Source: an uncultured Eubacteriales bacterium (GTDB lineage: Bacteria > Bacillota > Clostridia > Oscillospirales > CAG-272). Taken from it: DNA of 64,000 nucleotides. Numbering within the stretch: the stretch's first letter is position 1; every line of letters begins with the position of its first letter. The stretch spans positions 331-64,330 of the forward strand of contig URDX01000007.1 in assembly GCA_900546695.1 (NCBI GenBank). Direction: 5' to 3'. A model generated the notes under the pieces. The model did no database searches, was not told the DNA's origin, and saw only the letters and a list, made by a program, of their open reading frames with translations. This document shows, piece by piece, positions 16,227 through 50,791 of this stretch. Both the position numbers and the translations under genes were made by a program.

Positions 16227-18047
16227 ATGAGCAAGATAAAAAATCTCGCATCTAATTGCAGAAAGCATGTCGGCAATCTGATGTTCATGTACAGACAAAT
16301 ATTTTCGATTTCAAAAATCAGAATATTTCTTGTCGTTTTACAATGTATAATATCAAACGCATACCTGGTGGTAGATATTTATTTTCTCAAGTATATCGTT
16401 GAGGGATTAATAGGCGGTCGCAGCCTGACATATTTCGCCGCAGTGATAGCAGTAAAGTTAGGTACGCTTTTGTTGATGCAATGCTGCGACAATATCTTTG
16501 AAAACTATGTTTTCAAGAAAATAGATGTGAGAATCGAAAAAGAGCTCGCGATACGTCTGTTCGACAGAATCAAAGACATAAAGCTGAGCAAGATGGAATC
16601 CCCCGAATACTACAACAAATATGAGAAAGCCGTCGCGGAGGTCGGGCAGCGTTCGGGGGCACTTATCGGATATTTTACCTATGTTCTGTCCACCCTTTTG
16701 AACATCGTCAGCCTGACAGCCATCATCTCTTCCCTGAACGTTGCTATGATAATAATTTCGCTTGTCGGAATGCTTGTTACCGTTTGGGCGAACATAGCAA
16801 ATACAAAGAACGTTTATGATGCTAATATGAGCTTTGTGGATACGGACAGAAAAATTAATTACGTTCGTCGTATATTCTATCTCCCGCAGTATGCAAAGGA
16901 TATCAGGAGAACAAATCTGCCGCAGCTGCTGAAAAGAAAATATAATGATGCAATCGACGAAAAGCAGGGCTTGATAAAAAAGCACTGGCCGAAAATCATC
17001 GCGATAGCGGTATCGGGAAGCTGGCTTTATAACGTTGTAAATGTGGGTGCGTCGTATTTGTATCTGGCAATCAAAGCGATGCAGCAGGTCATTTCCGTCG
17101 GCGACGTCACATCGCTTGCTTACGCCGTCAATCAGTTGAGCAACAATTTTCTACAGATATCCAATATCATTCCGCAGGCGATTCAGCATTCATTGTACAT
17201 ACAAAACTATAAAGACATGTTCGACGCATTCAGCGAGGAAGACCTGTATGCAGGCTCCGATAAAGCCGCTGTTACGTGCGCCGGTGATATCAGGCTCGAG
17301 CACGTGTCTTTCAGCTACGTCGGTGCTAACGCAAAAGCAATCGATGATATATGCCTGTCGATAAGAAACGGAGAGCACCTTGCAATTGTCGGTGAAAACG
17401 GCTCGGGAAAAACAACTCTCGTAAAGCTGCTGTCGGCTCTGTATGACCCCTCAGACGGAAGGATATCTATGGGCGGCGTTGATTATAGGAATATTTCCTT
17501 CAAAAGCCTGTCGTCGCTGTTCGGAATCGTTGATCAGGATTTTCAGCACTATGCGTTTTCCATCTCGGAAAATCTCTCTATCCAATGCGACGGTACGGAT
17601 GTCGATGATGAAAGGGCCAGCGATTCGCTGAAAAAAGTAAATATTTATGACGCGATATCGAAGCTTGATAACGGGGTTGATTCTGTTTACTCTAAAGAAT
17701 TCGACAAAGACGGCGTAGACTTCTCGGGCGGTCAGCTCCAAAGGCTCGCCATCGCACGCGCTCTGTATTCCGATGCTCCGATAATGATTTTTGATGAGCC
17801 GTCAAGCGCTCTCGACCCTATAGGTGAGCAAAAGCTGTTTGACACCATTTATGAAAATTGCGCGGAAAAGACGCTCATCATGGTGTCGCATAGGCTCTCC
17901 TGCGTTAAGGATATGGATAGAATTATCGTTCTTGATAAGGGAAGGATAATCGAAATGGGCAGCCATGCGGAATTGATGCACTTGGACGGAAAATATGCTG
18001 AAATGTTTAAATTGCAGGGTGAAAGATACGGTCTTGATAAAGACTGA
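16227..18047 (+). CDS. ABC exporter, fused permease/ATPase (606 aa)
   Basis: N-terminal 6-TM domain. Walker A is GENGSGKTT, the signature is FSGGQLQR and Walker B is IMIFDEPSSALD. Confidence 0.9.
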   Translation: MSKIKNLASNCRKHVGNLMFMYRQIFSISKIRIFLVVLQCIISNAYLVVDIYFLKYIVEGLIGGRSLTYFAAVIAVKLGTLLLMQCCDNIFENYVFKKIDVRIEKELAIRLFDRIKDIKLSKMESPEYYNKYEKAVAEVGQRSGALIGYFTYVLSTLLNIVSLTAIISSLNVAMIIISLVGMLVTVWANIANTKNVYDANMSFVDTDRKINYVRRIFYLPQYAKDIRRTNLPQLLKRKYNDAIDEKQGLIKKHWPKIIAIAVSGSWLYNVVNVGASYLYLAIKAMQQVISVGDVTSLAYAVNQLSNNFLQISNIIPQAIQHSLYIQNYKDMFDAFSEEDLYAGSDKAAVTCAGDIRLEHVSFSYVGANAKAIDDICLSIRNGEHLAIVGENGSGKTTLVKLLSALYDPSDGRISMGGVDYRNISFKSLSSLFGIVDQDFQHYAFSISENLSIQCDGTDVDDERASDSLKKVNIYDAISKLDNGVDSVYSKEFDKDGVDFSGGQLQRLAIARALYSDAPIMIFDEPSSALDPIGEQKLFDTIYENCAEKTLIMVSHRLSCVKDMDRIIVLDKGRIIEMGSHAELMHLDGKYAEMFKLQGERYGLDKD

Positions 18048-18140
18048 GTCGCACTACACGAAAAATCCTCATTCGATCGAGTGGGGATTTTTCTTTTTCT
18101 TTTGCCGACAAAAAACAGCAGACAAAGCGTATTTTCCTGT

Positions 18141-18790
18141 CAGCCGAATCGGGTAGGAGGCGGTGACTAACCGCCTCCTACCACAACACCATGCGTACAG
18201 GTCCGTACACGGCGTTTCGATAAGTTGTTGTTTATGCCTTCTCCTTTGATGACTGCTAAACATTCTCGACCTCTACTCTCGGTTTCCAACCTACCCTCAG
18301 TCATTCAATCTTCATGGAGCAGCTGTTTTCAATCACAATCATTCACCTTTGATTTCACACAGCTTCTTATCGTCCCCCTTCCTCCGCGGTAATTAATCGC
18401 TTCTTCGGTACTTTGAGCGGAGCTGACCTCTGCAAGCTCAACCGCTGCCTTTCGACACGGCTTACTCCTTTTTGAAGCCGGGAGCGTTCCTTGCAAGCCT
18501 CCCCGAGTAAGAACAATAACCTTCATTCCGTAACCGCCGCATCTACTGTATGGAATTCGGGTGCATTGGACTTCTTCTTGTTTGGCAGAGTCGTCCGTCC
18601 CAAGTCTGCCTTCTATGCGATTTCTGTTCGTCAGTCCGGAGCTTTGCCCGCAGAGGCACTTCTCAGCCTCTACATCCGGCTTCCTTCGGATTCCGCCTCA
18701 CGACGGACACCCTTGCCTTCGGTTAATGCTTCCCGCTGCCGAGCGCATAGTGGGCTTTCACCACCAAGTTATTGCCCATGTCGGGCACAC
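18141..18790 (-). mobile_element. ORF-less group IIC intron, copy B (domains I-VI present, no reverse-transcriptase ORF)
   Basis: The 5' end is GTGTGCCCGACATGGGC, immediately 3' of a terminator hairpin. DI blocks resemble (from memory) the Oceanobacillus iheyensis IIC ribozyme: GCAAGGGTGTCCGT.GTGAGG.GGAATC.GAAGGAAGC, AAGAAGAAGTCC, CTTACTCGGGGAGGC. DV reads ACGCCGTGTAC-GGACCT-GTAC-GC-ATGGTGT, with a CGC triad and a 2-nt bulge. DVI is GGTAGGAGGCGGT..ACCGCCTCCTACC. The ~170-nt DIV holds only tiny ORFs. Confidence 0.8.
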
Positions 18791-18794
18791 CGCA

Positions 18795-19200: not shown

Positions 19201-19201
19201 T

Positions 19202-21183
<1,982 letters not shown>

Positions 21184-23295: not shown

Positions 23296-23450
23296 CTCAC
23301 CGCCGCATATCTGTTGTTCTCAGCCCGCCGCACATCTGCGGCGCGACCCTTTCATATACTACAGTCGTAAAAACAGCTGCATGGTTAGGGGGGGAGGCGA
23401 AAAAAGCGCAAGCATCGCTTCTCAAATTCGACAGATACGGCAAAAAGGGA

Positions 23451-23481
23451 GGGCTGCTAAAAAACAAGTTTTTAACAGCCC
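23451..23481 (-). terminator. intergenic terminator hairpin between two ABC exporter genes
   Basis: gggctgctaaaaaac-aag-tttttaacagccc. A T-run follows on the minus strand. Confidence 0.6.
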
Positions 23482-23660
23482 CGAGGGGAAAGGTAAAAAT
23501 GCCCTGACTTTTCGGACATCCCCTTTTATATGGAAAGGTAAAAAATGTAGCTAATCTATGTATGCAACGGGTCGACTTGCCGACGATATCATACCGTCCG
23601 CGCCCGACCGCGAGACATTTAATACAGCGCCATGACCTCCGTTCCCGACAAAATTGCCTG

Positions 23661-27753: not shown

Positions 27754-28023
27754 TTACTCTTGCGTCGAAAGGTCACACGACTCATCGTACAGCACCTGAA
27801 GAACATCTATCATCTTCTGCGCGGTATCCATCTCGGTTATAATCAGTTTTTCGTCCGGAATCACACACTCAAATTCTTCCTCCAAAGCTACTATTATCTG
27901 AATAAACGCGATTGAATCCATTCCGAGATCGGGCAGACTTTCGTCCAACTGCTCTACGGTTATTTCGAACTTTTCCGTGCTGTTGATGACTTCCAACACC
28001 TTCTCTATTGTAACTGTTTTCAT
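27754..28023 (-). CDS. acyl carrier protein-like protein (89 aa)
   Basis: The PP-binding helix-II signature is LGMDSIAFIQIIVALEEEFECVIPDEKL. Confidence 0.8.
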   Translation of the reverse strand: MKTVTIEKVLEVINSTEKFEITVEQLDESLPDLGMDSIAFIQIIVALEEEFECVIPDEKLIITEMDTAQKMIDVLQVLYDESCDLSTQE

Positions 28024-28050: not shown

Positions 28051-28188
28051 TCAATACTCGGATTGATAATTAAACACAAGTATATCACCAACATCGTATT
28101 TATCTTTCTGTTCAATAAATACTCTGTCATCCGGTAAAATAGCGGGATACATACTATTCCCGGTTACAGACACAAAATGTCCTTTCAT
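28051..28188 (-). pseudogene. truncated S24/S26-type peptidase fragment (45 aa)
   Basis: Not in the track because it is under 60 aa. It has a strong SD (aggaggcgacATG) and reads MKGHFVSVTGNSMYPAILPDDRVFIEQKDKYDVGDILVFNYQSEY*. It aligns with the N-terminal half of the 89-aa protein at 35815..36084 (GDSMLPT box) but stops before the His and GDN boxes. Confidence 0.6.
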
Positions 28189-30184: not shown

Positions 30185-30285
30185 CAGTCCGCCTTTTCAA
30201 ATGAATTCCGATAACTATCCTTCGCGCCGAGCACTGTTTTTACCCTTGCATTCTGCCCAAGGTATACCCGGCACTTCCGAGATTG

Positions 30286-30696
30286 TTATTCTTTAGCTTC
30301 CCGCTCGCGCGCATCCTCGTCATACTGCGCCTCGTTCGCCTCAGCCTCGCGCGCATCTCTGTCGTACTTCGCCTCGTTCGCTTCTACCTCGCGGGCATCC
30401 TCGTCGTACTGTGCCTCGTTTGCCTCAGCCTCGCGGGCATCCTCGTCGTACTGCACTTCGTTTGCCTCGGCCTCGCGGGCATCCTCGTCGTACTGCGCTT
30501 CGTTCGCCTCAACCTCGCGCGCATCTCTGTCGTACTGCACCTCATTTGCCTCAGCCTCGCGCGCATCTCTGTCGTACTGCGCTTCGTTTGCTTCTGCCTT
30601 GCGGGCATCCTCGTCGTACTGCGCTTCGTTTGCCTCGGCCTCGCGGGCGTATCTCTCGTACAACTCTTTCTTTTTTTCCGCCGTATGCATATCCAT
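30286..30696 (-). CDS. acidic tandem-repeat protein (136 aa; about eight 14-aa DAREAEANEAQYDE repeats)
   Basis: SD aggagg lies 8 nt upstream. The sequence starts MDMHTAEKKKELYERYAREAEANEAQYDEDARKAEANEAQYDRDAREAEANEVQYDRD... It has no signal peptide or TM segment. Confidence 0.65.
   Translation of the reverse strand: MDMHTAEKKKELYERYAREAEANEAQYDEDARKAEANEAQYDRDAREAEANEVQYDRDAREVEANEAQYDEDAREAEANEVQYDEDAREAEANEAQYDEDAREVEANEAKYDRDAREAEANEAQYDEDAREREAKE
30303..30645. repeat. 42-bp tandem repeat (about 8 units) inside the acidic-protein gene
   Basis: The plus-strand unit is ctcgcgcgcatcctcgtcatactgcgcctcgttcgcctcagc, with point variants. Confidence 0.8.
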
Positions 30697-30902
30697 AACA
30701 GTACCTCCTGTTTTTACCGACCGATATTCGGCTCGATATTTTTAATACGATTTTCGGCAAGGTTCTGCTGCGAGATGTTCAAACGTCACCTCGCAGCAGT
30801 TACGAATCGACGCCGATCAAGTTATACCATGCCGTTCCCGCTGTCTGCACACAGTCAAAAACGACCTCGGTATGCCGTCTCTCCGCATAAAATCCGCCAG
30901 GT

Positions 30903-31138
30903 TGATTATAGCACAACTTTGTATCTTTGTGTCAATCTTGACGCAAAACATATCAATTTTGTCCTGAAATGCATCTTTTTGTCAATGATAGAAAATTGCG
31001 TGTTTTTTCGCAGGATTTTCACACTATTTTACGGAAATTTTTGCGCGGATGCACAAGGAGAATTCCGTCTTTAAATTCCCGTCCCCGCCGCGAAAAGCGC
31101 CCGCGCAGAAAAGACAGCCTCTGCAGTCTGCCTTTTCA
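30903..31138 (-). repeat. ~235-bp cassette-junction module, copy 2
   Basis: The hairpin lies at 31108-31136. On the minus strand, TTGACA (30935-30930), a 19-nt spacer, then extended -10 TGcTATAAT (30910-30905) point at the acidic repeat-protein gene. Confidence 0.7.
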
Positions 31139-31243
31139 AACTAATTATGATAACTATCCTCCGCACCGATCACAATTTTTTCGAATCGCACATACACACT
31201 TTCTTCTGTATCTACCGATACACAAATCTATATTTTCGTTGAT

Positions 31244-35080: not shown

Positions 35081-35381
35081 TTTGACCGTCACCTGCCTTA
35101 TTATCGACGATTCGTTTTGAATCCAACAGATAATCATATAGGTCTTGGATAGTGTTGATTTCAATATCGAATTCAAAAGTAATATCATACAATTCTTCTA
35201 CTCGAACAATCAATTCAACAAAATCTATGGAAGACAAATCCAAACTATCCGTGCCAACTCCATAGCCAAGATGAGTATTAAGAGTAATTGGCATCCATAA
35301 ATTATCCACTTCAAATATTTTCTTTAATATTGACTCAATATCAATTAAAAAATCCTCAACCTGAACCACGTTATTATCCAT
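35067..35381 (-). CDS. acyl carrier protein-related protein (104 aa)
   Basis: SD aaggtggag. The sequence LGYGVGTDSLDLSSIDFVELIVRVEELYDITFEFDI resembles ACP helix II. The gene overlaps the rSAM start by 14 nt. Confidence 0.7.
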   Translation of the reverse strand: MDNNVVQVEDFLIDIESILKKIFEVDNLWMPITLNTHLGYGVGTDSLDLSSIDFVELIVRVEELYDITFEFDIEINTIQDLYDYLLDSKRIVDNKAGDGQNGVY

Positions 35382-35578: not shown

Positions 35579-35695
35579 TTAGCATTTCTTATACCCGGCT
35601 GCATGCTTCGTACTCCCGGCGCAACAACAATGTGCAACAATCACAATTTCCTTAAGAAGTTTCTTGGAAATCGGTCTGCCCTTTTTGGTCTTCAT
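35579..35695 (-). CDS. candidate RiPP precursor peptide, 38 aa, Cys-rich
   Basis: Not in the track because it is under 60 aa. The SD is aaaggaggt, 7 nt upstream of the ATG (35695). Translation gives MKTKKGRPISKKLLKEIVIVAHCCCAGSTKHAAGYKKC*. It lies between the peptidase-like and ACP-like/rSAM genes in the same orientation. Confidence 0.7.
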   Translation of the reverse strand: MKTKKGRPISKKLLKEIVIVAHCCCAGSTKHAAGYKKC

Positions 35696-35814: not shown

Positions 35815-36084
35815 TTACTCAATTACTCTTCCGATAATTTTATCTACACGAACAGCAAAGCTATCCGGTTCGAGACAATTGTCGCCCTTTGTTTTTATAA
35901 ATGAATAACCATTTCTTGTGTTAATCACCTTAATGATTCGATGACAAATAATCAATTCACCGACTTTAAATACAACAATATCATCCGGATACACTTTCCC
36001 GTCTTTTACAGCTTCCACTTTATACATGTTGCCATTCTGCAGCGTTGGCAGCATGCTATCCCCTTTCGCAATGATATACACCAC
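35815..36084 (-). CDS. minimal TM-less S26B (SipW/ER-type) signal-peptidase-like protein (89 aa)
   Basis: The boxes GDSMLPT, ELIICHRII and TKGDNCLEPD match the remembered Ser/His-type signal peptidase motifs (SGSMxP, xHR, TKGDNNxxxD). GTG start with SD gaggga. There is no hydrophobic segment. Confidence 0.7.
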   Translation of the reverse strand: MVYIIAKGDSMLPTLQNGNMYKVEAVKDGKVYPDDIVVFKVGELIICHRIIKVINTRNGYSFIKTKGDNCLEPDSFAVRVDKIIGRVIE

Positions 36085-39481: not shown

Positions 39482-39608
39482 TCAGAATACATCTTTCTTA
39501 GCTTCCCTTTCACATGCATATTTTTTGTACAGCACCTCGCTTACTTCCGCTTCCCGTGCAAAATCTCTCGTACAACTTTTCATTTTTCTCCTTCGTATGC
39601 TTATCCAT
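39482..39608 (-). pseudogene. frameshifted single-repeat homolog of the acidic repeat protein
   Basis: The same SD and start context as 30696 (aggaggtactgttATGga). It reads MDKHTKEKNEKLYER and then, after a T-run (atttt), the homologous frame DFAREAEVSEVLYKKYACEREAKKDVF* is +1. The in-frame product is only 32 aa (39510..39608). Confidence 0.5.
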
Positions 39609-40151: not shown

Positions 40152-40754
40152 TTATACTTCCTCGTCGTACAATCTTTTCTTTATCTCAAACAGTCTCTTA
40201 TACTCGCCGTCGGCTTCCATCAATTCCTTATGGGAGCCCTCTTCGCAGATAACTCCATCCTTCAAGTGAATGATTTTATCGGTCGTGACAGCGCATGAAA
40301 GGTTATGCGACACGATAATACAGGTTCTTGTTTTACTTATATCGCGTATCCCGCGAACGACCTGTTCTTCCGTTTCCGTATCAATAGCGCTTGTCGGCTC
40401 ATCAAGGATTATCACACCCGAATCCTTGATGATGGATCTGTAGAGCTTTATTCGCTGCTTCTCCCCTCCCGACGGTTCTACGCCGTTTGGATACAGATAT
40501 GTCAGCAATACGGTATCTAAATGATTGGGATATTTATTTACAATGCTGTCAAACCACTCATAATCTCCCGCCTTATACTTAGCTTGCAGCCCTTCATCTC
40601 CGAAAAACACATTCTCTCTGAGCGTTATCGGCAGGAGATTGCAATCCTGAAACATACTTCTATCATGTGCCATAACAAAAGCAAAGCATTTATCGCTGAT
40701 TATCTTGACGGGTATCATCGGCTTCGTATTTGCGCGCTTGGCAAATTCGGCCAT
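40152..40754 (-). pseudogene. 5'-truncated ABC exporter gene (C-terminal part of the NBD only)
   Basis: The 200-aa ORF has the signature PSGGEKQR, Walker B VIILDEPTSAIDTETE and the H-loop IIVSHN. It lacks Walker A and the whole TMD. Confidence 0.7.
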
Positions 40755-41027
40755 TATTATTCAAGAGTTTACTTTCTGCTAAGACTATAGCATATTTTCG
40801 CTTTTTGGTCAATATAAACGTATTAATTCGCACTAAAAAATATGCGTATTCGCGCTTTTTTGTCGAAAACAGGTATTTTTTGTAACCGTAATTGATGGCG
40901 CGTGTTCTATACATGATCAACAATATTTTAAATAACTTCAACAATTTTTATCAAGCAACACCAGGTTATTTACACCACATAATATTATACCTCAACTCTC
41001 TCCGCAAGCGTTATTATTACATAATCA

Positions 41028-41056
41028 TTGACGAAATGCGGAAAATGTGTTATCCT
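41028..41056 (+). promoter_or_regulatory. putative promoter of the plus-strand ABC exporter pair
   Basis: TTGACG (41028-41033), a 17-nt spacer, then TGtTATCCT (41048-41056). Confidence 0.45.
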
Positions 41057-41110
41057 TATACATGAAAAATCCACGATTCGATAATTTCTCCGAAAAAACA
41101 GAAGGTACAC

Positions 41111-42934
41111 ATGAAGAAGAAAAAAGAAGAAAGAGAATTAAAGCGCGGGCGGATATTTGCGAACAACATTTTCGCCTTAAAGCTGCTTTGGAAGGCATGT
41201 CCCGCGAAGATGGTATTCACCGTCGTGACCACCCTTACCGGCATTGCTCTCGGGCTTGCGTCGCTGTATATAATCCGCTATGCGACGAACACCGCAGATG
41301 CAAACGGTGAGTATCTCAGTGTGCTTGCATGGCTGCTTGTGCTTGTCGGCGCGTATCTGGCAGACAGCCTTTTCGGTCAGCTTGCGGGCATATATATTAC
41401 GCCGCAGTTCGATGAGCAGGTAAACAAGCGGCTCAAACGAAAAATTCTCGAGAAAGCAGCCGAATGCGATCTCGAATGCTACGAAAACCCCGAGTTTTAC
41501 GAAAAGTACACCTGTGCGATGATAGAGGGTCCGGGGCGGTGCGACGCCGTTTTCGGCTCGGTTATCGGGCTGATACGGGATATCATCGAGTTTTTCGGCG
41601 CGGGACTGATAGTTATTCTCGCCGACCCGATCATGCTGATATTTGTGGTCATACCGTTCGTTTTCGGCTTTCTCAAGGCGGGCGGACAAAAGACGGGCTT
41701 CAAGCTGCACAACGAAAAAATGAAGGTCGAGCGCCGCAAGGCTTATCCCGTCCGCATCTTTTATCAGAGTGCATATGCAAAGGAGCTGCGCACCACCGAT
41801 ATTTCCAAGCCGATTATAGCGCGGTACAGAGAGGCAATCTCCGATTCCGTAAAGATATATCACAAATACGGCACAAAGCTCGCACTCTACTATGCGTTTG
41901 TCGATATCGTTGACATGTTTCTCGGCGATTACGGAATCTACATTTATATAGCATGGCGGGTGCTTGTATCAAAAACGATGCCGCTCGGCGACTGCTTTGT
42001 CAGCGTCATAGCGATAAATACCGTTCTCGGCTCGGTCTATTCCCTTCTCGATTCGTCGATGATCTTCTACGAGCATGCGCTGCATGTGGAAAACATGCGT
42101 TTCCTGCTCGACTACAAGCCGAAGATAGCCGTAAACAAGGACGCACCCGCGGCGCACGCAGGGGATATCGTGCTCGACCATGTATCGTTTTCCTATTTCG
42201 GCTCGGAGGAAAAAGCGCTCGACGATGTCTCACTGACGATACACAAGGGCGAAAAGCTCGCTGTCGTCGGGCAAAACGGCGCGGGAAAAACGACCCTGAC
42301 AAAGCTGCTGCTGCGTCTGTACGACCCGACGGCGGGCTCGATATCATTGGACGGCAAGGATATACGCGATGTCGAGCTGACGTCATATCGCGACCTTTTT
42401 GCGACCGTATTGCAGGACTACCGCCATTTCTCGATGTCGGTAAAAAGCAATATTCTGCTCCGACGCGAGCAGGACGGAGATGATGCCGTCGTCGCGGACG
42501 CACTGCGCAAAAGCACGGCGGATTCGTTCGTTGATGCCTTTCCGAACGGCGCGGATTCGATTCTCGACCGCGAGTTTGACGACAACGGAGAGGTCCTTTC
42601 GGGCGGGCAGGCGCAGATGATTTCCATCGCCCATGTCCATGCGAAGGGCAGCCCGATCGTCATCCTCGACGAGCCGTCGTCCGCGCTCGACCCCATCGCG
42701 GAGCAAAAGATGTATGAAAATATGATGGCATCCGCGGAGGGAAAAACGGTAATCTTTATCTCTCACAGAATGTCTGCGTGCACCCTCGCCGACAGGATAG
42801 TCGTGCTCGATCACGGAAGGGTGCTCGAGTGCGGCAGCCACGCCGAGCTGATGAAAAAGAACGGAAGATACTCGGAGCTGTTCCGCATGCAGTCGGAGCA
42901 CTATATCGAAGGCGAAGCGGAGGAGGCGTGCTGA
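41111..42934 (+). CDS. ABC exporter, fused permease/ATPase (607 aa)
   Basis: TMD plus an NBD with GQNGAGKTT, LSGGQAQM and IVILDEPSSALD. Confidence 0.9.
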   Translation: MKKKKEERELKRGRIFANNIFALKLLWKACPAKMVFTVVTTLTGIALGLASLYIIRYATNTADANGEYLSVLAWLLVLVGAYLADSLFGQLAGIYITPQFDEQVNKRLKRKILEKAAECDLECYENPEFYEKYTCAMIEGPGRCDAVFGSVIGLIRDIIEFFGAGLIVILADPIMLIFVVIPFVFGFLKAGGQKTGFKLHNEKMKVERRKAYPVRIFYQSAYAKELRTTDISKPIIARYREAISDSVKIYHKYGTKLALYYAFVDIVDMFLGDYGIYIYIAWRVLVSKTMPLGDCFVSVIAINTVLGSVYSLLDSSMIFYEHALHVENMRFLLDYKPKIAVNKDAPAAHAGDIVLDHVSFSYFGSEEKALDDVSLTIHKGEKLAVVGQNGAGKTTLTKLLLRLYDPTAGSISLDGKDIRDVELTSYRDLFATVLQDYRHFSMSVKSNILLRREQDGDDAVVADALRKSTADSFVDAFPNGADSILDREFDDNGEVLSGGQAQMISIAHVHAKGSPIVILDEPSSALDPIAEQKMYENMMASAEGKTVIFISHRMSACTLADRIVVLDHGRVLECGSHAELMKKNGRYSELFRMQSEHYIEGEAEEAC

Positions 42935-42935
42935 A

Positions 42936-44729
42936 ATGAAAAAGAAAACATCGCTTAAAAGCACCCTTTCCGGCAACCTGTTTCTGCTGAAATATATATG
43001 GAAATTTGCGCCCTCATACCTCTTCTGGGAGGTGCTGAATGCGCTAATTCAGGGCGCTTATATCTCCATCATTAAGGTCTACCGTAAGCTGTACTACGAC
43101 TCGCTTTCCGACGGGCGGCAGTTTATATACGTGCTCGGCATGTGCCTCACCGTGTTTGCGGTATTTGTATTCGTTGAAATATTCACCGGCTATTACATGC
43201 AGGTCCTGAGAGAAAGCAAAAAGCAGAAACTGAAGCTCGGAATGACCGTCGATCTGTTCCGCGCGGCGCAAAGGGTCGACCTCGCCTGCTACGATGATAC
43301 CGAGTTCTACAACGACTTTATATGGTCGATGAGCAACGGCGACGGTCGCGCGACCGCCATGGTCGATTCGCTGATGAAAACGCTCAACCGCTCGATAGTT
43401 CTTATCACCTCGGCGGCGATAATGGCGACGATAAACCCGTGGATATCATTGATAGCGGCGCTCGTCGCCGTCGTGTCGGTCATCCTGAACAGAAATACGA
43501 TGCTGCTGTCGGTCAGACGCAACGTCGCATTGAATCCGCTCACCAGAAAAAGCTCCTACTATGAGCGCATCTTTTCACAGCCCGATATGGCAAAAGAGGT
43601 CAGGATAAGCCATATCTCGGACGTTGTTCTCGACGATTACGAAAGCAATATCGGCGAGATACGCAAAACGGAGCAGAAGTTCAATCGTGAGGGCGTAAAA
43701 TACAGCCTCCCGGGTGCGCTCATAGAGCGTCTGATGGAGCCAGTAGTGTACATTATCGTGCTCTACCTCATCATGGTGAAAAAGACCGCGTCGATAGGCG
43801 ACCTCGCCATCGTCGTGACGACGTTCAAATCCATAAAATCCTGTCTATCCGACCTGCTCCAATCGCTCACCTCGTTTGAGGAGCATGCACTGTTTACCGA
43901 AAAGGTCAGAACATTGCTCGAATATAAGCCCAAGCTGAAAAGCGGCGAGCTGCCCGTGCCTGAGTTTGAAAGCCTCGAGCTGAAAAACGTCTGCTTCTCG
44001 TATCCGAACGGCGAAGAGGTGCTGCACGACGTCAGCCTGTCGGTGCGGCGCGGCGAACGGATAGCATTTGTCGGCTATAACGGCGCGGGAAAATCAACGC
44101 TCGTCAAGCTGATACTGCACTTTTATGAGCCGACATCGGGCGTAATACTGCTGAACGGAACCGATATCCGCGAGTATGATGCGGAAGCATACCGCCGCAG
44201 CATCGGCTCGGTCTTTCAGGATTTTCAGATCTACGCCCTCTCCCTGTCCGAAAATGTTCTGTGCGATGAGGTCAGCCCGTCGGATTCGGATGCCGTTTCC
44301 GATGCCCTGAGAGCCGCATCGTTCGGCGAAAAGCTCGCGCAGCTGCCCGAAGGGCTGAATACCGAGCTGACACGCGAATTTTCGGACGACGGAACAAACC
44401 TGTCGGGCGGAGAAGCGCAGAAGGTCGCCATCTCGCGAATATTTGCGCGCCCCTACCGGCTCATTCTCATGGATGAGCCCTCCGCATCGCTCGACCCCGA
44501 AGCGGAAAACGAGATAAACGGAAATATCAGCCGCCTCGGCACGGATAAAACCGTCGTGTGCATCTCGCACCGCCTCTCCACCACACGCTATTCCGACCGC
44601 ATCTACGTCTTTGACGGCGGTCGCCTCGCGGAGGAGGGTACGCATCAGCAGCTGATGTCGCTCGGCAGAAGGTACGCGGAAATGTTTGAAGCACAGGCGA
44701 AGAAATATACCGCCGCCGAAACAGGCTGA
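42936..44729 (+). CDS. ABC exporter, fused permease/ATPase (597 aa), likely heterodimer partner of 41111..42934
   Basis: Starts 2 nt after the upstream stop. The NBD has GYNGAGKST, LSGGEAQK and LILMDEPSASLD. Confidence 0.9.
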   Translation: MKKKTSLKSTLSGNLFLLKYIWKFAPSYLFWEVLNALIQGAYISIIKVYRKLYYDSLSDGRQFIYVLGMCLTVFAVFVFVEIFTGYYMQVLRESKKQKLKLGMTVDLFRAAQRVDLACYDDTEFYNDFIWSMSNGDGRATAMVDSLMKTLNRSIVLITSAAIMATINPWISLIAALVAVVSVILNRNTMLLSVRRNVALNPLTRKSSYYERIFSQPDMAKEVRISHISDVVLDDYESNIGEIRKTEQKFNREGVKYSLPGALIERLMEPVVYIIVLYLIMVKKTASIGDLAIVVTTFKSIKSCLSDLLQSLTSFEEHALFTEKVRTLLEYKPKLKSGELPVPEFESLELKNVCFSYPNGEEVLHDVSLSVRRGERIAFVGYNGAGKSTLVKLILHFYEPTSGVILLNGTDIREYDAEAYRRSIGSVFQDFQIYALSLSENVLCDEVSPSDSDAVSDALRAASFGEKLAQLPEGLNTELTREFSDDGTNLSGGEAQKVAISRIFARPYRLILMDEPSASLDPEAENEINGNISRLGTDKTVVCISHRLSTTRYSDRIYVFDGGRLAEEGTHQQLMSLGRRYAEMFEAQAKKYTAAETG

Positions 44730-44740
44730 CTCGCCCGCAC

Positions 44741-44921
44741 CGCGCGGTTGAATGAAATACCCTCGTTCCGCCGCGCTGCGCGGTTGAATGAAAACGTCCT
44801 CGTTTCCCCGTGCCGGCGGTTGAGTGAAAACACTCACTCCGCCGCGCCACGTGGTTGAATGAAACCGCCCTCGCTTCTCCGCGCCATGCGGTTAAAGCAC
44901 TCTCGCTCAGCCGCGCAGCAC
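44741..44921. repeat. degenerate ~37-nt tandem repeat (5 units) in a convergent intergenic region
   Basis: Units begin at 44741, 44779, 44817, 44852 and 44889. The core is (G)CGGTTGAATGAAA..CCTCG..CCGCCGCGC. Confidence 0.6.
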
Positions 44922-45143
44922 TCTGTTTGCCCCCACAACTGCGAAAATGTCTCCTTGATACGAATGTAATTCGAGCGAAAAAAACAAAATGACACGACAA
45001 AAACGGCACGGTTTTTCCGTGCCGTTTTTTCGGGTTACTGCATATGCCTATATTTTATCTGCATATATTTCGGGAAAAATATATGCAGATAACGGGCAAT
45101 TTTTTTGCTTATCTGTGCATCAAAGGGGTAAAATGATTTCCGT

Positions 45144-46979
45144 TCACTCCCCCGCAGTGCCGCCTTGCTCTGCTGCGGGCTCCGACGGCAGGTCGCGATA
45201 AAACTTTGCCTGCTTATCGAACATCTCGGTATAGATACCGCCCTTTGCATACAGCTCGGCGTGCGTTCCGTATTCGGCTACGTGCCCGTCGTCGAACACC
45301 GCGACCCTATCCGCGAGCTGAACGGCGGAGAGACGGTGCGTTATCATGACCGCCGTTCTTCCGCGTATCATATTGTGGAACTGCGTATAGATTTCGTATT
45401 CCGCCAGCGGGTCAAGCGCGGCGGTAGGCTCATCGAGCAGATAGATACTGCCGCCGCGATAGCAGGCGCGGGCGATGGCGATACGCTGCTCCTCTCCGCC
45501 CGACGGAGTTATTCCGTCCTCGTCGAGCCATTTGCTGATATACGTGTCGTAACGGCGCGGGAGCTTCTCTATCAGCGAATAGATACCGCAGCTTTTGCAG
45601 ACGTCATCAAGCTTTTCGGCATCGTAATCGTTCGTGAGAACGATATTCTCCCCGAGCGTCAGACCGTCAAACAGCTGATAGTCCTGAAAGACCGCCGCAA
45701 ACATTTTTATGTACTGCTCGGGCTCATAATCGTCAAGGCTCCTGCCGTTCAGAAGTATCTCGCCCTCGGTCGGCGAGAACATGCGGCACAGCAGCTTTAT
45801 GAACGTCGATTTTCCCGCACCGTTTTCGCCTACGATGCACAGCGTCTCGCCGCTTCTGATTTTCAGGTTGAAATTCTTCAAGATATCCCTGTCGCTGCCG
45901 GGGTATCTGAACGAAACATTCCTGAATTCTATCACGGCATCCGCACCGAAGGTCGGTATCGAATCCCCGCAGCGCGACCGCGTCAGCGGCAGCTCCATGT
46001 ACTCTATCATTTCATTGACATGCGGAACGTTATTATTCAGCCCGAGATATGAGCCGAACACGCCGCCCACCGCGGACGAAAACTGTCCCGCGGCGCTCAG
46101 GTATATCGACATGGTACCGATAGGGAGACCGACCGCAAGGACCTTATAGATGAGGTACGCATATATGATAAGCTGCTGCGCACAGCCGAGAAGCGACTGC
46201 TTCACGCCCGCCTTGCTCTGCAGCTTATTCTTGCTCAGCTCGTTATTGAAATAGTCCCTTTCCGCCGAGGTTTTCTTGTCAATCATGTACGGCGTCAGCC
46301 CGAAAATGCGCATCTCCTTAGCCCACAGATACTGCGCGAGCGGATTATGGCTGACGAGCAGGAAGCGCGACAGCCTGTCGCCCTCCTTGTTCAGCTTAAA
46401 GATGTCCGCATTCAGATGCTTTGCGATTATCGAATTGATGTACATTATCAGGACAATGACCGCGATAACGATCGGAGACAGCGTGCTGATTATGGAAAAG
46501 AGCGCGATAACGCTGACGACCGACGACAGCAAGCCGAACAGCTGTGATATGATGTTCGCCGAATTCTGAATTGTATCCTTTGCCCGTCCGCCCATCATTC
46601 CGATATCGGGCGACTCGCGGTATTCAAAATCCACCTGCGACAGATGAATGTAGAAATCGGTTTCGAGCGAATCCTTCAGCTCAAACGACAGCCGCATTAT
46701 CCGCCTGTTCATCGCTATGCCAAGCAGTTGGTATATGACCGGGACAAACAGCATCACGGCAAGCAGTGCGCCGATGACCTGCAGCCTCCGCCCGCCCGTC
46801 AGCTCGTTAATTATCATGCCGGGCAAAACGGATAGACCGATAGGCACCAGCGCATTGAGGCACGAGAACACCCCGCTGTGCGCTATCAGCCGCTTTCCCT
46901 GCTTCTTTCCGCAGACCATCCTAAGCAGACAGCGTGTGCTTTTCACGGTCTGCTTAAAATTATACTTCGGTTTCTCCAT
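45144..46979 (-). CDS. ABC exporter, fused permease/ATPase (611 aa)
   Basis: TMD plus an NBD with GENGAGKST, PSGGEEQR and IYLLDEPTAALD. Confidence 0.9.
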   Translation of the reverse strand: MEKPKYNFKQTVKSTRCLLRMVCGKKQGKRLIAHSGVFSCLNALVPIGLSVLPGMIINELTGGRRLQVIGALLAVMLFVPVIYQLLGIAMNRRIMRLSFELKDSLETDFYIHLSQVDFEYRESPDIGMMGGRAKDTIQNSANIISQLFGLLSSVVSVIALFSIISTLSPIVIAVIVLIMYINSIIAKHLNADIFKLNKEGDRLSRFLLVSHNPLAQYLWAKEMRIFGLTPYMIDKKTSAERDYFNNELSKNKLQSKAGVKQSLLGCAQQLIIYAYLIYKVLAVGLPIGTMSIYLSAAGQFSSAVGGVFGSYLGLNNNVPHVNEMIEYMELPLTRSRCGDSIPTFGADAVIEFRNVSFRYPGSDRDILKNFNLKIRSGETLCIVGENGAGKSTFIKLLCRMFSPTEGEILLNGRSLDDYEPEQYIKMFAAVFQDYQLFDGLTLGENIVLTNDYDAEKLDDVCKSCGIYSLIEKLPRRYDTYISKWLDEDGITPSGGEEQRIAIARACYRGGSIYLLDEPTAALDPLAEYEIYTQFHNMIRGRTAVMITHRLSAVQLADRVAVFDDGHVAEYGTHAELYAKGGIYTEMFDKQAKFYRDLPSEPAAEQGGTAGE

Positions 46980-47072
46980 CCCCTGCTCCTTTCAACCCGA
47001 TAATAACGCGCCCGCATATAGGGGCATCGAAATCGTCTCCTTCACGCCGCATGCGGAGCACTGCGTTCCTGT

Positions 47073-48923
47073 CTACTTCCCTGCCTCACCGTCGCTCTCT
47101 GCTGCGGGCTCCGACGGCAGGTCGCGATAAAACTTTGCCTGCCTATCAAACATCTCGGTATAAATACCGCCCTTTGCATACAGCTCGGCGTGCGTTCCGT
47201 ATTCGGCTACGTGCCCGTCGTCGAACACCGCGACCTTATCCGCGAGCTGAACCGCGGACATTCTATGCGTAATGAGAACCGCCGTACGGTCTGTGATGAT
47301 ATGCGTAAAACTGTTGTATATCTCATACTCCGCCGCGGGATCAAGCGCTGCGGTAGGCTCATCGAGCAGGTAGATCGGGCGGTCATGATACAGCGCGCGG
47401 GCGATCGCTATCTTCTGCCCCTCGCCGCCCGACGGTTCAAAACCGTCCTCGTACACCTGCTTGCCGACATATGTATCCGGTCCGTTTTTCAGCTTGGGTA
47501 TAAGCGAAGCCAGCTCGCTTTTCTCCACAGCCGACATCACCCTGTCAACGTCGGGCTCGTTCTCGAGCGCAATGTTGTCGATAAGGGACATCCGATATTT
47601 TGAATAGTCCTGAAAAACGGGCGCAAACAGCTTCATGTAATCAAAACGGTCAAAATTTCTGATATTAACACCGTCAAGCAGTATCTCGCCCTCGGTCGGA
47701 AAATACAGCATCGTAAGCAGCTTGATAAACGTGCTTTTGCCCGAGCCGTTTTTGCCGACGATGCAGAGCTTTTGTCCGAGCGGTATCTTCAGATTCAGAT
47801 CCCGTATCGCATAGACATCGCTCCCGGGATACCTGAATGAAACACCTGCGAATTCAATGGCCGAATCAGGTCGGAGTTCAGGCTTCTGCGCTCCGCTGTT
47901 ATCCTTCATATTCGGCATTTTCATAAAGGCTTTTATCTCTTTGATATTCAGGCAATAATCGGCTATCGCGAGATATGAGGAGGTAATTGCATTGAGCGAC
48001 CCCGCAAGCTGATTGCCCGCCGACATAAATATCGTCATTGAGCCTATCGTCAGGGCGCCGCCTATTACACGGACAACGGAGAATGCGTACAGAAACAGCT
48101 GTTGAAGCACGCCCGTAATGACCGTGATGCTGCGCAGCCGTTTTATGTAGACATTATTCTCGTGCAGACAATCATCAAGCTCGGTCACTATCGCGGAATA
48201 TCTGCCGATAAAATAATCCTTAAGCCCGAACAGCCGCAGCTCCTTGCTGTTTTGAGGATTCGACAGATTGTCAAATTCACTCCACAGAAATCGGTTTTTA
48301 TCGTCATGTGCCCGATTTCTGTCATGAACTATTACCCCTATTTTCTTGTTAGCGACGGCATTGATTATCACGATAAGAACCAGCAAAATCACTACAAACG
48401 GGCTCAATATCGCTATAACGGAAATTACGGAGACTACCCCTATCACGGCTCTCAGCATTCCGAGCAGATAGTTCACCATATCAATGGGTGCATTCGGAGC
48501 GTAGTTGAGTATTCGGCTGAGCTGCACCGCTATCTCCGGGCTCTCATACGAGGAGTACTCCATATCCGAGACATATTCATGCAGCCTTATCTCAAACAGC
48601 CGCTTCAAGCGCCCGCTTATCCTGTCGGTATACGACCCTATCGTCATATCCTTTAAATGATTGAGCAGCGGAGAAAAACACAGTATCGACACGTATACCG
48701 TCAAAACCGATACCCTCCGCTCGCCCGACAGCTCGTTGATAATCAAGCCGGGCATAATCATAAAGATTATCGGAAACAACGATTCAAACACCGCCGCAAA
48801 TATACGCAAAATAATATATCTGCCCCCGTATTTTGCATGCCTGAACTGCCTGAGCACATAGGCTACATCGCCTATGTTATCGCTGAATCCTGAAAAAATT
48901 TTCTTCATATCGGTAAACCTCAA
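47073..48923 (-). CDS. ABC exporter, fused permease/ATPase (616 aa)
   Basis: TMD plus an NBD with GKNGSGKST, PSGGEGQK and IYLLDEPTAALD. Confidence 0.9.
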   Translation of the reverse strand: MRFTDMKKIFSGFSDNIGDVAYVLRQFRHAKYGGRYIILRIFAAVFESLFPIIFMIMPGLIINELSGERRVSVLTVYVSILCFSPLLNHLKDMTIGSYTDRISGRLKRLFEIRLHEYVSDMEYSSYESPEIAVQLSRILNYAPNAPIDMVNYLLGMLRAVIGVVSVISVIAILSPFVVILLVLIVIINAVANKKIGVIVHDRNRAHDDKNRFLWSEFDNLSNPQNSKELRLFGLKDYFIGRYSAIVTELDDCLHENNVYIKRLRSITVITGVLQQLFLYAFSVVRVIGGALTIGSMTIFMSAGNQLAGSLNAITSSYLAIADYCLNIKEIKAFMKMPNMKDNSGAQKPELRPDSAIEFAGVSFRYPGSDVYAIRDLNLKIPLGQKLCIVGKNGSGKSTFIKLLTMLYFPTEGEILLDGVNIRNFDRFDYMKLFAPVFQDYSKYRMSLIDNIALENEPDVDRVMSAVEKSELASLIPKLKNGPDTYVGKQVYEDGFEPSGGEGQKIAIARALYHDRPIYLLDEPTAALDPAAEYEIYNSFTHIITDRTAVLITHRMSAVQLADKVAVFDDGHVAEYGTHAELYAKGGIYTEMFDRQAKFYRDLPSEPAAESDGEAGK

Positions 48924-48967
48924 AAATGCCGATCAAACTGCTTTGATATTCTCCGCCGTTCCCGCCG

Positions 48968-50791
48968 TCAGACCTCCCCGCACGGTTCGGGCGGAACATC
49001 GCGGTAGAACTGCGCCTGCCTATCGAACATCTCGGTATAAATACCGCCCTTTGCATAGAGCTCGGCGTGCGTTCCGTATTCGGCTACGTGCCCGTCGTCG
49101 AACACCGCGACCATATCGGCAAGCTGAACCGCGGAGAGACGGTGCGTTATCAGCACGGCGCACTTATCGGTTATCATATTATTAAACTGCGTATAAATTT
49201 CATATTCGGCATTGGGGTCAAGCGCCGCCGTCGGTTCATCAAGGATATAGACGCTGCCGCCGCGATAGAGTGCGCGCGCCATGGCAATGCGCTGCCCCTC
49301 GCCGCCCGACGGCTCTATCCCCTCCTCGTCAAACCACTTATAGATAACGGTATCGTAGCCGTTCTTATTATGCTCCGCCATCTCGGACAAGCCGCTCTGA
49401 CGCGCCGCCGACCGCAGCCGTTCTTCGTCGTAGCTCTCCGCCATCACGATATTTTCGCCAAGCGTGATATTATACAGCGCAAAATCCTGAAACACGGGCG
49501 CAAAAAGCCTGCGATACTCCCGATATTCGTACTCGTTTATATTGATGCCGTTCAGCAGTATCTCGCCCTCCGTCGGGACGTACAGCCTCGTCAGCAGCTT
49601 TACAAAGGTCGATTTTCCCGAGCCGTTTGCGCCCACGATGCACAGCTTTTCGTCGCCGCGGATTGTAAGGCTCAGCCCCTTGATAACGAATCTGTCGCTG
49701 CCGGGATATCTGAACGATACGTTTTTGAATTCGATAACCGAATCCGTCCCGAAGGTAGGCGTGAGGCTTCCTCTGACGTGATTGCTCAGCGGTATCTCCA
49801 TGAATTTTATAAGCTCCTGCACGCTGAGACTCAGCATAGACAGGTTGAGATACTGCTGTGTGATGTTAGACAGCGAGCCCGAGAACTGCATTATCAGTCC
49901 CATATATATCGTCATACTGCCGACCGACAGCGCGCCCGCAATGACCTTGAAAACGAAATAGAGATTCAGCAGCGCGGTCTGCGCAAAGGATATCAGCGCA
50001 CCGAAAAAGCTGCTGTTGCGGATATAAATGCTGCTTTTCTCGCCGTACTTATTTGCTTCGAGCCGCTTTCCGACGTACAGGTTGATGAAAAAATCCTTCA
50101 GACCGTATATGCGCATCTCCTTTGCATACTTCATATCGGAAAAATAGCTCATCACCGGCCATCCGTAGCGGTTGTAGCGCTGTATATTGCGGTTCATCTC
50201 AAAGGTCTTTCGGTTCAGCCGTTTGCCGTTTATATAATTGAGCACGACGGCTGCCGCGACGGGGATCAGTATCCACGGATTCAGCACCGTTATCGTCGAG
50301 ATGCACATGATAAGACTGACAAGCGCCGTGACAAGACCGCTCAGACCCTCAAACACATCAAGACTCCTGAAGGTCGTATCCGACGCGCGCTCCTTGAGCA
50401 TTCCTATCTCGGGGTTCTCCATCGTCTCGTAATCCATGTCCGCGCAATGACCGATAAAATCCGCGTTGACCTGCACCATGAACCTGTATCGCAGACTGTT
50501 TAAATACACATTCAGCGACGACGTGACCGCGCTCTGCAGCAGCGGTATCCCCGCTGTCGCGGCGATATACCACAAAAGAACATCGACCCGCTGCGCGCCT
50601 GTCAGCTCGTTTATGATAAGTCCGGGCAGAAGCACGAGCCCGAGCGGAAGTACGGCGCCGAGCACCGACAAAAAGCTCTTCATCAGTATGTAGCCCTTGC
50701 CGCTGCGCGAGCGCCATACGTATCCGAGCATGTATTTTGAGGTCGAAAACGTTGTTCTGAGATTCTGCTTTAATCTGTCGCTTTCCTTCAT
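48968..50791 (-). CDS. ABC exporter, fused permease/ATPase (607 aa)
   Basis: Start trimmed to the ATG at 50791 (MKESDRLKQNLRTTF), with SD aaagga 8 nt upstream. This removes the overlap with the next gene. The NBD has GANGSGKST, PSGGEGQR and VYILDEPTAALD. Confidence 0.85.
   Translation of the reverse strand: MKESDRLKQNLRTTFSTSKYMLGYVWRSRSGKGYILMKSFLSVLGAVLPLGLVLLPGLIINELTGAQRVDVLLWYIAATAGIPLLQSAVTSSLNVYLNSLRYRFMVQVNADFIGHCADMDYETMENPEIGMLKERASDTTFRSLDVFEGLSGLVTALVSLIMCISTITVLNPWILIPVAAAVVLNYINGKRLNRKTFEMNRNIQRYNRYGWPVMSYFSDMKYAKEMRIYGLKDFFINLYVGKRLEANKYGEKSSIYIRNSSFFGALISFAQTALLNLYFVFKVIAGALSVGSMTIYMGLIMQFSGSLSNITQQYLNLSMLSLSVQELIKFMEIPLSNHVRGSLTPTFGTDSVIEFKNVSFRYPGSDRFVIKGLSLTIRGDEKLCIVGANGSGKSTFVKLLTRLYVPTEGEILLNGININEYEYREYRRLFAPVFQDFALYNITLGENIVMAESYDEERLRSAARQSGLSEMAEHNKNGYDTVIYKWFDEEGIEPSGGEGQRIAMARALYRGGSVYILDEPTAALDPNAEYEIYTQFNNMITDKCAVLITHRLSAVQLADMVAVFDDGHVAEYGTHAELYAKGGIYTEMFDRQAQFYRDVPPEPCGEV

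Follow-up and report, generated by a model that had tools for sequence, protein, structure and literature searches.

A strain-variable genomic island dense in ATP-binding cassette exporters, many related to pumps of peptide gene clusters, in an uncultured human-gut Clostridia species

Why would a gut bacterium line up a dozen ATP-binding cassette (ABC) exporter genes within a few tens of kilobases, most of them without any biosynthetic genes that could supply a product to export? We addressed this question in a 64,000-nucleotide stretch of DNA (hereafter the window; positions 331 to 64,330 of contig URDX01000007.1, assembly GCA_900546695.1) from an uncultured Eubacteriales bacterium. An open reading frame (ORF) listing and Pfam scans identify 12 intact genes for fused exporters, in which a transmembrane domain (TMD) is joined to a nucleotide-binding domain (NBD), plus one NBD fragment, all within 34.6 kb. 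Comparison with contigs of the same species shows a genomic island whose content varies among strains of this uncultured Clostridia species of the human gut. We consider it probable that the island is a recombination hotspot stacking modules of radical S-adenosylmethionine (rSAM) peptide clusters, whose pumps are kept while most of the biosynthetic genes are lost.

The main array, a 37-kb stretch, extends from groESL on the left to a beta-lactamase-like gene, divIC, yabQ and yabP on the right, and one extra cassette (A1) lies on the other side of groESL. The exporters are labeled as left-to-right groups A1, B1-3, C1, D1-2, E0 (the fragment), F1-2 and G1-3:

16227-18047, + strand: A1, ABC exporter, 606 aa, terminator at 18060-18093
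19202-21156, - strand: groES-groEL, conserved left landmark of the main array (NCBIfam GroEL 846 bits; Cpn10 called in the same-species contig L002)
21487-23289, - strand: B1, ABC exporter, 600 aa
23661-25496, - strand: B2, ABC exporter, 611 aa
25558-27396, - strand: B3, ABC exporter, 612 aa
28197-29978, - strand: C1, ABC exporter, 593 aa
36111-37703, - strand: D1, ABC exporter, 530 aa
37693-39279, - strand: D2, ABC exporter, 528 aa
40152-40754, - strand: E0, C-terminal NBD fragment, 200 aa
41111-42934, + strand: F1, ABC exporter, 607 aa
42936-44729, + strand: F2, ABC exporter, 597 aa
45144-46979, - strand: G1, ABC exporter, 611 aa
47073-48908, - strand: G2, ABC exporter, 611 aa
48968-50791, - strand: G3, ABC exporter, 607 aa
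50886-52160, - strand: gene for a Beta-lactamase2-domain protein, the first conserved right-border gene, followed by divIC, yabQ and yabP

The 12 full-length proteins measure 528-612 aa, each with a C-terminal ABC_tran domain (E-values 1e-21 to 1e-32), and their ORFs occupy 21.4 of the 34.6 kb, or 62% of the DNA. The original prediction, a reading of the letters and ORFs, had claimed an extreme density of 12 intact exporters and one truncated, and all 12 ORFs are indeed found where it had placed them. Its list of start positions is right for the plus-strand genes, while for the nine intact minus-strand genes and the fragment the listed positions are the 3' (stop-codon) ends; gene-caller starts give 600 aa for B1, 611 aa for B2 and G2, and 607 aa for G3, the G3 start at 50791 coinciding with the end coordinate of the region as predicted. 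For a background estimate, groEL-centered loci from 80 related species (1.253 Mb) were scanned with a profile built from the 12 proteins; only 7 full-length fused exporters turned up, or 0.0056 per kb compared with 0.35 per kb here, a ~60-fold difference. At the background rate 0.19 exporters would be expected in the stretch (Poisson P(>=12) = 4.7e-18), and an equal density throughout the genome is unrealistic because exporters fill so much of this DNA. An assembly artefact was rejected, as the same arrangement occurs in contigs from four different sample accessions.

To what extent the array is shared by other strains was assessed with same-species contigs from human-gut metagenomes. A left-side set of six contigs (L001-L006) came from an exact GroEL protein look-up and a right-side set of ten from a YabP look-up (L097 and L103 are also of this species), and one 200-kb contig, ERZ28621551 scaffold_12, matches 21.6 kb of the window at 100% identity. 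When C1, F2 and the beta-lactamase-like protein were looked up by exact match, they were found only in contigs of the window's strain type, and the mid-island comparison is limited to these. The GroEL protein itself is at most 83% identical to its best matches in a contig scan, which belong to Oscillospiraceae, Eubacteriales and Clostridia metagenome-assembled genomes. Among the conspecific contigs there are at least four module gains, losses or swaps. The original prediction had offered, as an alternative, a hotspot where cassettes accumulate, and had proposed comparing the locus in related strains; contigs with 98-100% identical flanks do differ by whole modules, at the A1 cassette, the B2/B1 block, B2/B3 and F1/F2.

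The A1 cassette, 4.2 kb with A1 and a gene for a 333-aa protein, occurs in L002 and L003 but not in L001, L004, L005 or L006. In the window it lies between two direct repeats; the B2/B1 junction is another variable site:

14140-14553: left copy of the 414-bp direct repeat flanking the A1 cassette; group II intron D1-D4 fragment inside it, 14273-14468 (- strand)
18379-18792: right copy of this repeat; group II intron fragment inside it, 18512-18707 (- strand)
23334-23598, - strand: B2/B1 junction, empty cassette site, 265 bp in the window, terminator at 23482-23450

The two repeats are 98.3% identical, their intron fragment (Rfam RF02001, 111 bits) is ORF-less, and strains without the cassette retain one copy of the repeat. 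At the B2/B1 junction, L001 and L004 carry a 5.4-kb block that encodes an rSAM/SPASM protein, an acyl carrier protein (ACP)-like protein, a Cys-rich ORF of 47 aa, an S8 peptidase joined to a TIGR04066-like (Pfam DUF1611) region, and a protein of 346 aa. In L005, B2/B3 are replaced by a different exporter pair and two MutS_V genes, and L003 has a B3/B2 fusion together with another pair accompanied by NTP_transf_5 and ACP-like genes; F1 and F2 are 41-43% identical to these alternative pairs. The F1/F2 pair is found in six of ten strain contigs and missing from four, with an indel spanning ~40318-44994, and strains that lack it have a 116-aa ORF in which the last 55 codons of E0 follow an N-terminal piece of a group II intron reverse transcriptase (19447-19797 in L097). 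Intron remnants thus recur at module borders. Short imperfect tandem repeats (~75 nt, 76% identical) occur at 44734-44916 of the window, downstream of F2 and near the right edge of the F1/F2 indel.

Other parts of the island are constant. B1 is present in all six groEL-anchored contigs, and G3-G2-G1, the beta-lactamase-like gene and divIC-yabQ-yabP in all ten right-side contigs, G1 being split in L097; B1 and G1-3 are therefore fixed, and what lies between them, together with the A1 cassette, is variable. Island genes have synonymous divergence (dS) between strains of 0.074-0.089, compared with 0.014-0.022 for flanking core genes, and the variable modules have 31-48% GC compared with 51-64% for flanking and conserved genes.

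In other organisms, orthologues of B1, C1 and G3 reside in rSAM peptide gene clusters with ACP-like proteins and one to three exporters each. The nearest external relatives of A1, B1, C1 and G3 are 66%, 73%, 59% and 67% identical, respectively. At locus L109, the B1 orthologue ends a cluster with an rSAM gene, two ACP-like genes, a 39-aa and a 43-aa ORF (the latter ending in a Cys-rich stretch), an ABC pair and an S8/DUF1611 gene, along with a phosphopantetheinyl transferase and a tyrosine recombinase (both within 8094-9794) and a 330-aa member of the same family as the 333-aa protein. The C1 orthologue at L113 has rSAM/PqqD genes on one side and, on the other, a gene for an intact S24 peptidase of 140 aa, after which come NTP_transf_5 and an ABC pair. 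At L116 the G3 orthologue is flanked by an rSAM gene and by a gene of the 333-aa family. The D2-D1 type of pair is also found at L117 and L119; at L117 the D-type operon encodes proteins of 90 and 344 aa besides small ORFs, two rSAM enzymes and a pair of ABC proteins of ~540 aa, and it is carried on a conjugative-type element whose mobility genes (within 1-6800) include PrgI, TraG-like, TnpV, a ParE/Phd toxin-antitoxin and a transposase. The mobility genes beside the L109 and L117 clusters point to horizontal spread of such modules.

The exporters themselves are old and independent lineages. Most pairs within the island are 17-33% identical, B2/G1 reach 39% and G1-G3 43-46%, so that the full range is 17-46%, and the closest relative of most window exporters is an external sequence rather than an island neighbor. 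In a neighbor-joining tree, A1, B1-3, C1, F1-2 and G1-3 group with cluster-embedded exporters and apart from generic pairs near groEL in other species, while D1/D2 form a deep branch of their own. G1-3 make up the only local clade, and within it nests the G3 orthologue of another organism. A phylogeny had been suggested at the outset to separate duplication from independent acquisition, and it favors the latter; recent tandem duplication was rejected on the low identities and on external orthologues being closer than island paralogues.

All 12 exporters have NBDs of the ABCB-like half-transporter kind (type IV fold, the former type I exporters), with Walker A (GxNGxGK[ST]), Q-loop, signature xSGG[EQ] (PSGGE in G1-3), a Walker B motif that closes with DEP and includes the catalytic Glu, and a His in the H-loop. 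A crude hydropathy scan gives the N-terminal hydrophobic half of each the 2+2+2 helix pattern of ABCB-like exporters. Only D1 and D2 exceed the threshold of the Pfam ABC_membrane model; B3 and G1-3 score beneath it, and A1, B1, B2, C1, F1 and F2 give no match. In full-length alignments to MsbA and HlyB models, the ten long exporters reach E-values of 1e-55 to 1e-78, and D1 and D2 reach 1e-27 to 1e-44. NCBIfam places all 12 in a generic MsbA/HlyB-like group, no exporter reaching any of its family (equivalog) cutoffs, and PDB sequence searches with G1 and D1 returned only generic ABCB1/ABCB4-type matches, which are uninformative. As originally predicted, none of the 12 has a Peptidase_C39 domain: there is no Pfam match, matches to the bacteriocin_ABC and NHLM models begin past the peptidase region, and the first transmembrane helix begins so early, at residue ~10-65, that such a domain would not fit before it.

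In TM287/288, LmrCD and BmrCD, adjacent genes encode asymmetric heterodimers with one degenerate ATP site. The F1/F2, D2/D1 and B3/B2 pairs resemble these in being adjacent, sometimes overlapping genes for half-transporters of ~600 aa, but the ATP sites of the island exporters are all consensus, and the degenerate site is absent from all 12. Degenerate-site heterodimers were therefore rejected as an explanation of the pairs and triplets, and homodimers or symmetric heterodimers are both possible. The truncated NBD noted in the original prediction is likewise real: E0, the leftover of a decayed exporter, still has the signature motif, Walker B and a variant H-loop but no Walker A.

The orphan exporters are intact and under purifying selection. 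Between conspecific strains, the ratio of nonsynonymous to synonymous substitution rates (dN/dS) is 0.04-0.28 overall. It is 0.20-0.24 for B2 and B3 against L006, over more than 50 substitutions each, and 0.04-0.24 for G1-3 (0.04-0.11 against L103); the values for A1, B1 and C1, 0.07-0.28 (0.08-0.23 for B1), are drawn from few substitutions.

Only one group of exporters is accompanied by a full set of candidate biosynthetic genes. D2 and D1 head the only apparently complete biosynthetic operon of the window, which was found only in contigs of one strain type and continues after the exporter pair in this order:

35815-36084, - strand: S24/S26 (signal-peptidase-I-like) peptidase, 89 aa, without membrane anchor
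35579-35695, - strand: candidate precursor peptide, 38 aa, MKTKKGRPISKKLLKEIVIVAHCCCAGSTKHAAGYKKC
35067-35381, - strand: ACP-like protein, 104 aa (PP-binding 1e-4, above Pfam threshold)
33659-35080, - strand: rSAM/SPASM maturase, rSAM1
32401-33666, - strand: second radical-SAM enzyme, rSAM2
31244-32242, - strand: 332-aa transacylase-like protein, last gene of the operon

The rSAM genes (32401-35080) have a GC content of only 31-36%. The 38-aa ORF is called as a gene in independent assemblies, and its Lys-rich leader and Cys-rich C-terminus resemble those of the 47-aa ORF of L001 and the 43-aa ORF of L109; the C-termini read ...HCCCAGSTKHAAGYKKC in the window, ...CTNNGTCCGNGQCCG in L001 (3802-3945) and ...DSCCPSGQSGNCTC in L109 (1138-1269). 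We infer that it is a candidate precursor peptide.

The last gene of the D operon has a close relative beside A1:

15100-16101, + strand: 333-aa protein upstream of A1

The two proteins are 79% identical in amino acids and 80% in nucleotides. The 333-aa protein has no Pfam or NCBIfam match, and its family comprises only 18 clusters among 5.8 billion proteins, with homologues that always lie beside ABC exporters in rSAM clusters. Its AlphaFold2 (AF2) model is of high quality (predicted local distance difference test, pLDDT, 90.6; predicted template modeling score, pTM, 0.88), and Foldseek against PDB aligns it over its full length with AziU3/U2, CcbD (with its peptidyl carrier protein partner) and CtaG (E-values 2e-7 to 3e-5, probability 1.0, TM score 0.54-0.59), which we take to be carrier-protein-dependent amide-forming transacylases. 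The 333/332-aa proteins are thus predicted to have a BtrH/CcbD/CtaG-type transacylase fold, which fits the ACP-like genes here and the phosphopantetheinyl transferase in L109. Across the family Ser14 is near-invariant and His120 and His123 are invariant, and there is no conserved N-terminal Cys; PDB entry titles name C19 of CcbD and C11 and H128 of CtaG, and Ser14 lies, like those mutated Cys residues, near the N-terminus.

The gene repertoire recalls the clostridial Cys-rich peptide maturation system described by Haft, in which the rSAM protein CcpM (TIGR04068) occurs with TIGR04066, TIGR04069, a subtilase and ABC proteins, as in Roseburia intestinalis (PMC4573289). The island modules match it in rSAM/SPASM, ACP-like, Cys-rich ORF, peptidase and ABC genes, but all scores fall below the family cutoffs: TIGR04068 gives 118 bits for rSAM1 and 88.5 bits for the L001 rSAM protein (cutoff 500), TIGR04066 gives 88.7 bits for the L001 fusion protein (cutoff 200) and no match in the window, TIGR04069 has no match, and the ACP-like proteins match only generic ACP models, below NCBIfam cutoffs. 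The D operon further differs in its S24-like peptidase, its second rSAM enzyme and its BtrH/CtaG-like protein. To judge from these comparisons, the modules would work like the Haft system without being members of it. Among the papers searched, none characterizes a cluster with rSAM, ACP-like and DUF1611 proteins, and the gene-cluster family has no characterized product that we found.

The C1 module retains remnants of a gene cluster downstream of the exporter, and it shares a terminator-plus-promoter module with two other units:

27754-28023, - strand: ACP-like protein 3' of C1, 89 aa (PP-binding 5e-10)
28051-28188, - strand: S24 peptidase fragment 3' of C1, 45 aa (Peptidase_S24 8e-7)
30247-30724, - strand: 42-nt tandem repeat, ~11 units, in the leader upstream of C1
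27470-27716, - strand: terminator-plus-promoter module, copy 1, 5' of B3-B2
30905-31140, - strand: terminator-plus-promoter module, copy 2, 5' of C1
39809-40055, - strand: terminator-plus-promoter module, copy 3, 5' of D2-D1

The 45-aa S24 ORF aligns to the first 48 aa, or first third, of the intact S24 peptidase (140 aa) that neighbors the C1 orthologue at L113, and is therefore a truncated remnant; with this fragment and the ACP-like gene, the C1 module is visibly decayed. Its leader, ~950 nt between the promoter module and C1, contains an ORF (30286-30696) of 136 aa made of acidic 14-aa repeats, EANEAQYDEDAREA, and the homologous D2 leader (39482-39583, - strand) has a single frameshifted unit. 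Among the three terminator-plus-promoter copies, identity is 75-78% across ~240 nt, and the two longer copies share 76% across ~530 nt; longer homologous leaders stand upstream of C1 and D2. Each consists of a hairpin, ~200 conserved nt, and TT[GA]ACA separated by an 18-nt spacer from TATAAT, and the ~150 conserved nt 5' of the -35 box could serve as a common operator. In a set of 86 loci, the module was found elsewhere only at the homologous position in three same-species contigs.

The ten exporters other than D2-D1 form separate transcription units or stand beside decayed remnants. B3-B2 is one operon, from a promoter at 27512-27483 to the terminator at 23482-23450, and B1 is a transcription unit of its own, split from B3-B2 by that terminator and the cassette insertion point; the stop and start codons of F1 and F2 are adjacent. 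The original prediction had found two triplets odd for proteins that usually act as dimers. The B group, however, is not a triplet, and the complete clusters at L109 and L113 carry a single exporter plus a pair, so that the oddity largely dissolves. G1-G2-G3 is a true conserved triplet of old paralogues. Their last ~30 codons share 91-97% nucleotide identity, with third positions 80-93% identical compared with ~40% elsewhere, the mark of a gene-conversion tract that has homogenized these ends:

45144-45280, 47073-47210 and 48968-49100: 3' ends of G1, G2 and G3, respectively, gene-conversion tract

Taken together, these data suggest that a complete module comprises a Cys-rich precursor, an rSAM/SPASM enzyme, an ACP-like or PqqD-like protein, an S8-TIGR04066-like or S24 peptidase, a transacylase and one to three ABCB half-transporters. 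The strain of the window holds one apparently complete module (D2-D1 to the 332-aa gene), one decayed module (C1) and one fragment (E0), with A1, B3-B2 with B1, F1-F2 and G1-3 as exporters without a biosynthetic core. Modules would be gained, lost and swapped by homologous recombination, for which the terminator-promoter spacers, the group II intron remnants and the conserved NBD-coding 3' ends are candidate substrates. An integron-like array was rejected: no integrase was seen among the island ORFs and no attC-like site in the window, the repeats at the borders are terminator-promoter modules and group II intron fragments, the only tyrosine recombinase is that of the L109 cluster in another organism, and the region upstream of B1, aligned across strains, shows no defined attachment site.

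The retained pumps may act as homodimers or symmetric heterodimers that expel mature peptides, by analogy with the microcin exporter McjD. Where their cluster is present they would export its product, and where it is absent they may protect against the peptides of sibling strains. Such immunity fits three features of the data, namely that exporters without a core are intact and constrained, that sibling strains possess the core, and that biosynthetic genes decay first, as at C1. A strain would then hold an archive of exporters from clusters that it has lost or never had, kept for cross-immunity against Cys-rich, possibly acylated peptides of one family, different members of which would be made by sibling strains; we put this forward tentatively, as a possibility that falls short of probable.

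Several considerations weigh against the hotspot reading or its extension to immunity. B1 and G1-3 are fixed in every sampled strain and may have a housekeeping role unrelated to peptide warfare; the change at the B2/B1 biosynthetic block may have been a loss or a gain; and no recombinase or defined attachment site is present among the window ORFs, so that the mechanism rests on repeats and breakpoints. Some dN/dS values (B1, C1, A1) derive from very few substitutions, the density background consists of other species' groEL-centered loci, the 38-aa ORF is an unverified candidate for a precursor, and immunity through orphan pumps is pure inference.

Could the array be explained without peptide clusters? 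Ordinary multidrug, lipid or xenobiotic efflux pumps of the LmrCD, BmrCD or EfrCD type might have multiplied by local duplication, with the peptide genes as bystanders, and the generic MsbA-like/ABCB placement by NCBIfam, the ABCB1 and ABCB4 matches in PDB and the fixation of B1 and G1-3 in all strains would all suit such pumps. This explanation is nonetheless unlikely, because the degenerate ATP site typical of asymmetric drug pumps is lacking, the exporters are not recent duplicates and fall in the tree with cluster-embedded exporters, apart from generic pairs, the orthologues of B1, C1 and G3 lie inside rSAM peptide clusters elsewhere, and the operons of C1 and of D2-D1 also contain ACP-like and S24 genes. 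We also judge it quite unlikely that the orphan exporters are functionless leftovers becoming pseudogenes. Decay is visible in E0, in the 45-aa S24 fragment, in the B3/B2 fusion of L003 and in the split G1 of L097, yet all 12 reading frames are intact with complete catalytic motifs, dN/dS is 0.04-0.28, including the well-populated comparisons of B2 and B3, and G1-3 and B1 are conserved in every strain.

Two further explanations accept the link to peptides. Variable loci for peptide pheromones and their exporters occur in Firmicutes, and the candidate precursors here are small modified peptides, so that the pumps might export strain-specific signaling peptides, with the variability reflecting pherotype diversification; since most of the exporters are without a precursor or maturase, and neither a sensor kinase nor an Rgg/PlcR-type receptor was seen among the island ORFs examined, this seems rather improbable. 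Alternatively, all twelve pumps might serve the single rSAM operon as a redundant battery for one peptide: they surround the only apparently complete biosynthetic operon, and the promoter module common to the B3-B2, C1 and D2-D1 units could allow co-regulation. We regard this as very improbable, as the D operon occurs in one strain type only while B1 and G1-3 are fixed everywhere and other modules vary independently, the D module carries its own exporter pair here as in L117 and L119, and other exporter lineages belong to different clusters elsewhere. The battery of export or immunity pumps around one or more peptide products imagined in the original prediction was partly right, in that the pumps belong to clusters resembling those of peptides that the ribosome makes and that are modified after translation (RiPPs), and partly wrong, in that only D2-D1 sit in a biosynthetic operon. 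Collectively, the evidence favors a recombination hotspot for modules of rSAM peptide clusters.

Such a hotspot has partial parallels in other bacteria. The pneumococcal blp locus occupies a fixed site with strain-variable bacteriocin and immunity content, and some strains there have immunity without production. It uses small immunity proteins and one C39-type transporter, BlpAB, whereas the variable units of this island are the ABC exporters themselves. McjD, an ABC exporter that confers self-immunity to microcin J25 (PMC5641919), is like the island pumps a fused TMD-NBD half-transporter of the ABCB type, without C39 and encoded in or derived from a RiPP cluster. There is one McjD pump per cluster, beside the biosynthetic genes, while the island modules have up to three per cluster, mostly without such genes; the canonical ATP sites of the island pumps are compatible with homodimers. 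Similarly, the acquired interbacterial defense (AID) islands of gut Bacteroidales are arrays of orphan immunity genes against type VI secretion systems (T6SS) (bioRxiv 10.1101/471110), and share with this island strain variability, a gut commensal host and protective (here putatively protective) genes that lack the matching weapons. They differ in that AID islands encode small immunity proteins against T6SS effectors, and here predicted 600-aa pumps would act against secreted peptides, with no recombinase in the window.

If the pumps do give cross-immunity, strain-level peptide warfare in one common, uncultured species of gut Clostridia would be recorded in one hypervariable island, the collected units would be whole ABC exporters rather than small immunity proteins, and the orphan-immunity islands of Bacteroidales would have a Gram-positive counterpart built on pumps. 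The combination of rSAM/SPASM and ACP-like proteins with a phosphopantetheinyl transferase, a BtrH/CtaG-like protein and up to three exporters suggests hybrid ribosomal/carrier-protein chemistry. Moreover, dense exporter arrays can flag strain-variable sites of peptide clusters even where the genome examined has no biosynthetic genes.

Some minor features were observed at and beyond the island borders. The Beta-lactamase2-domain protein that borders G3 has an N-terminal extension of ~185 aa and an interstrain dN/dS of 0.6-0.9 on only 4-6 substitutions. Outside the island, divergent genes for tRNA-Pro(CGG) (7255-7331, - strand) and tRNA-Arg(TCT) (7469-7545, + strand) adjoin 583 bp (6666-7248) that are absent from L001, L004 and L006, a small indel, and a glycine riboswitch aptamer (2187-2279, + strand; Rfam RF00504, 62.9 bits) lies just 5' of a 522-aa ORF (2425-3993).

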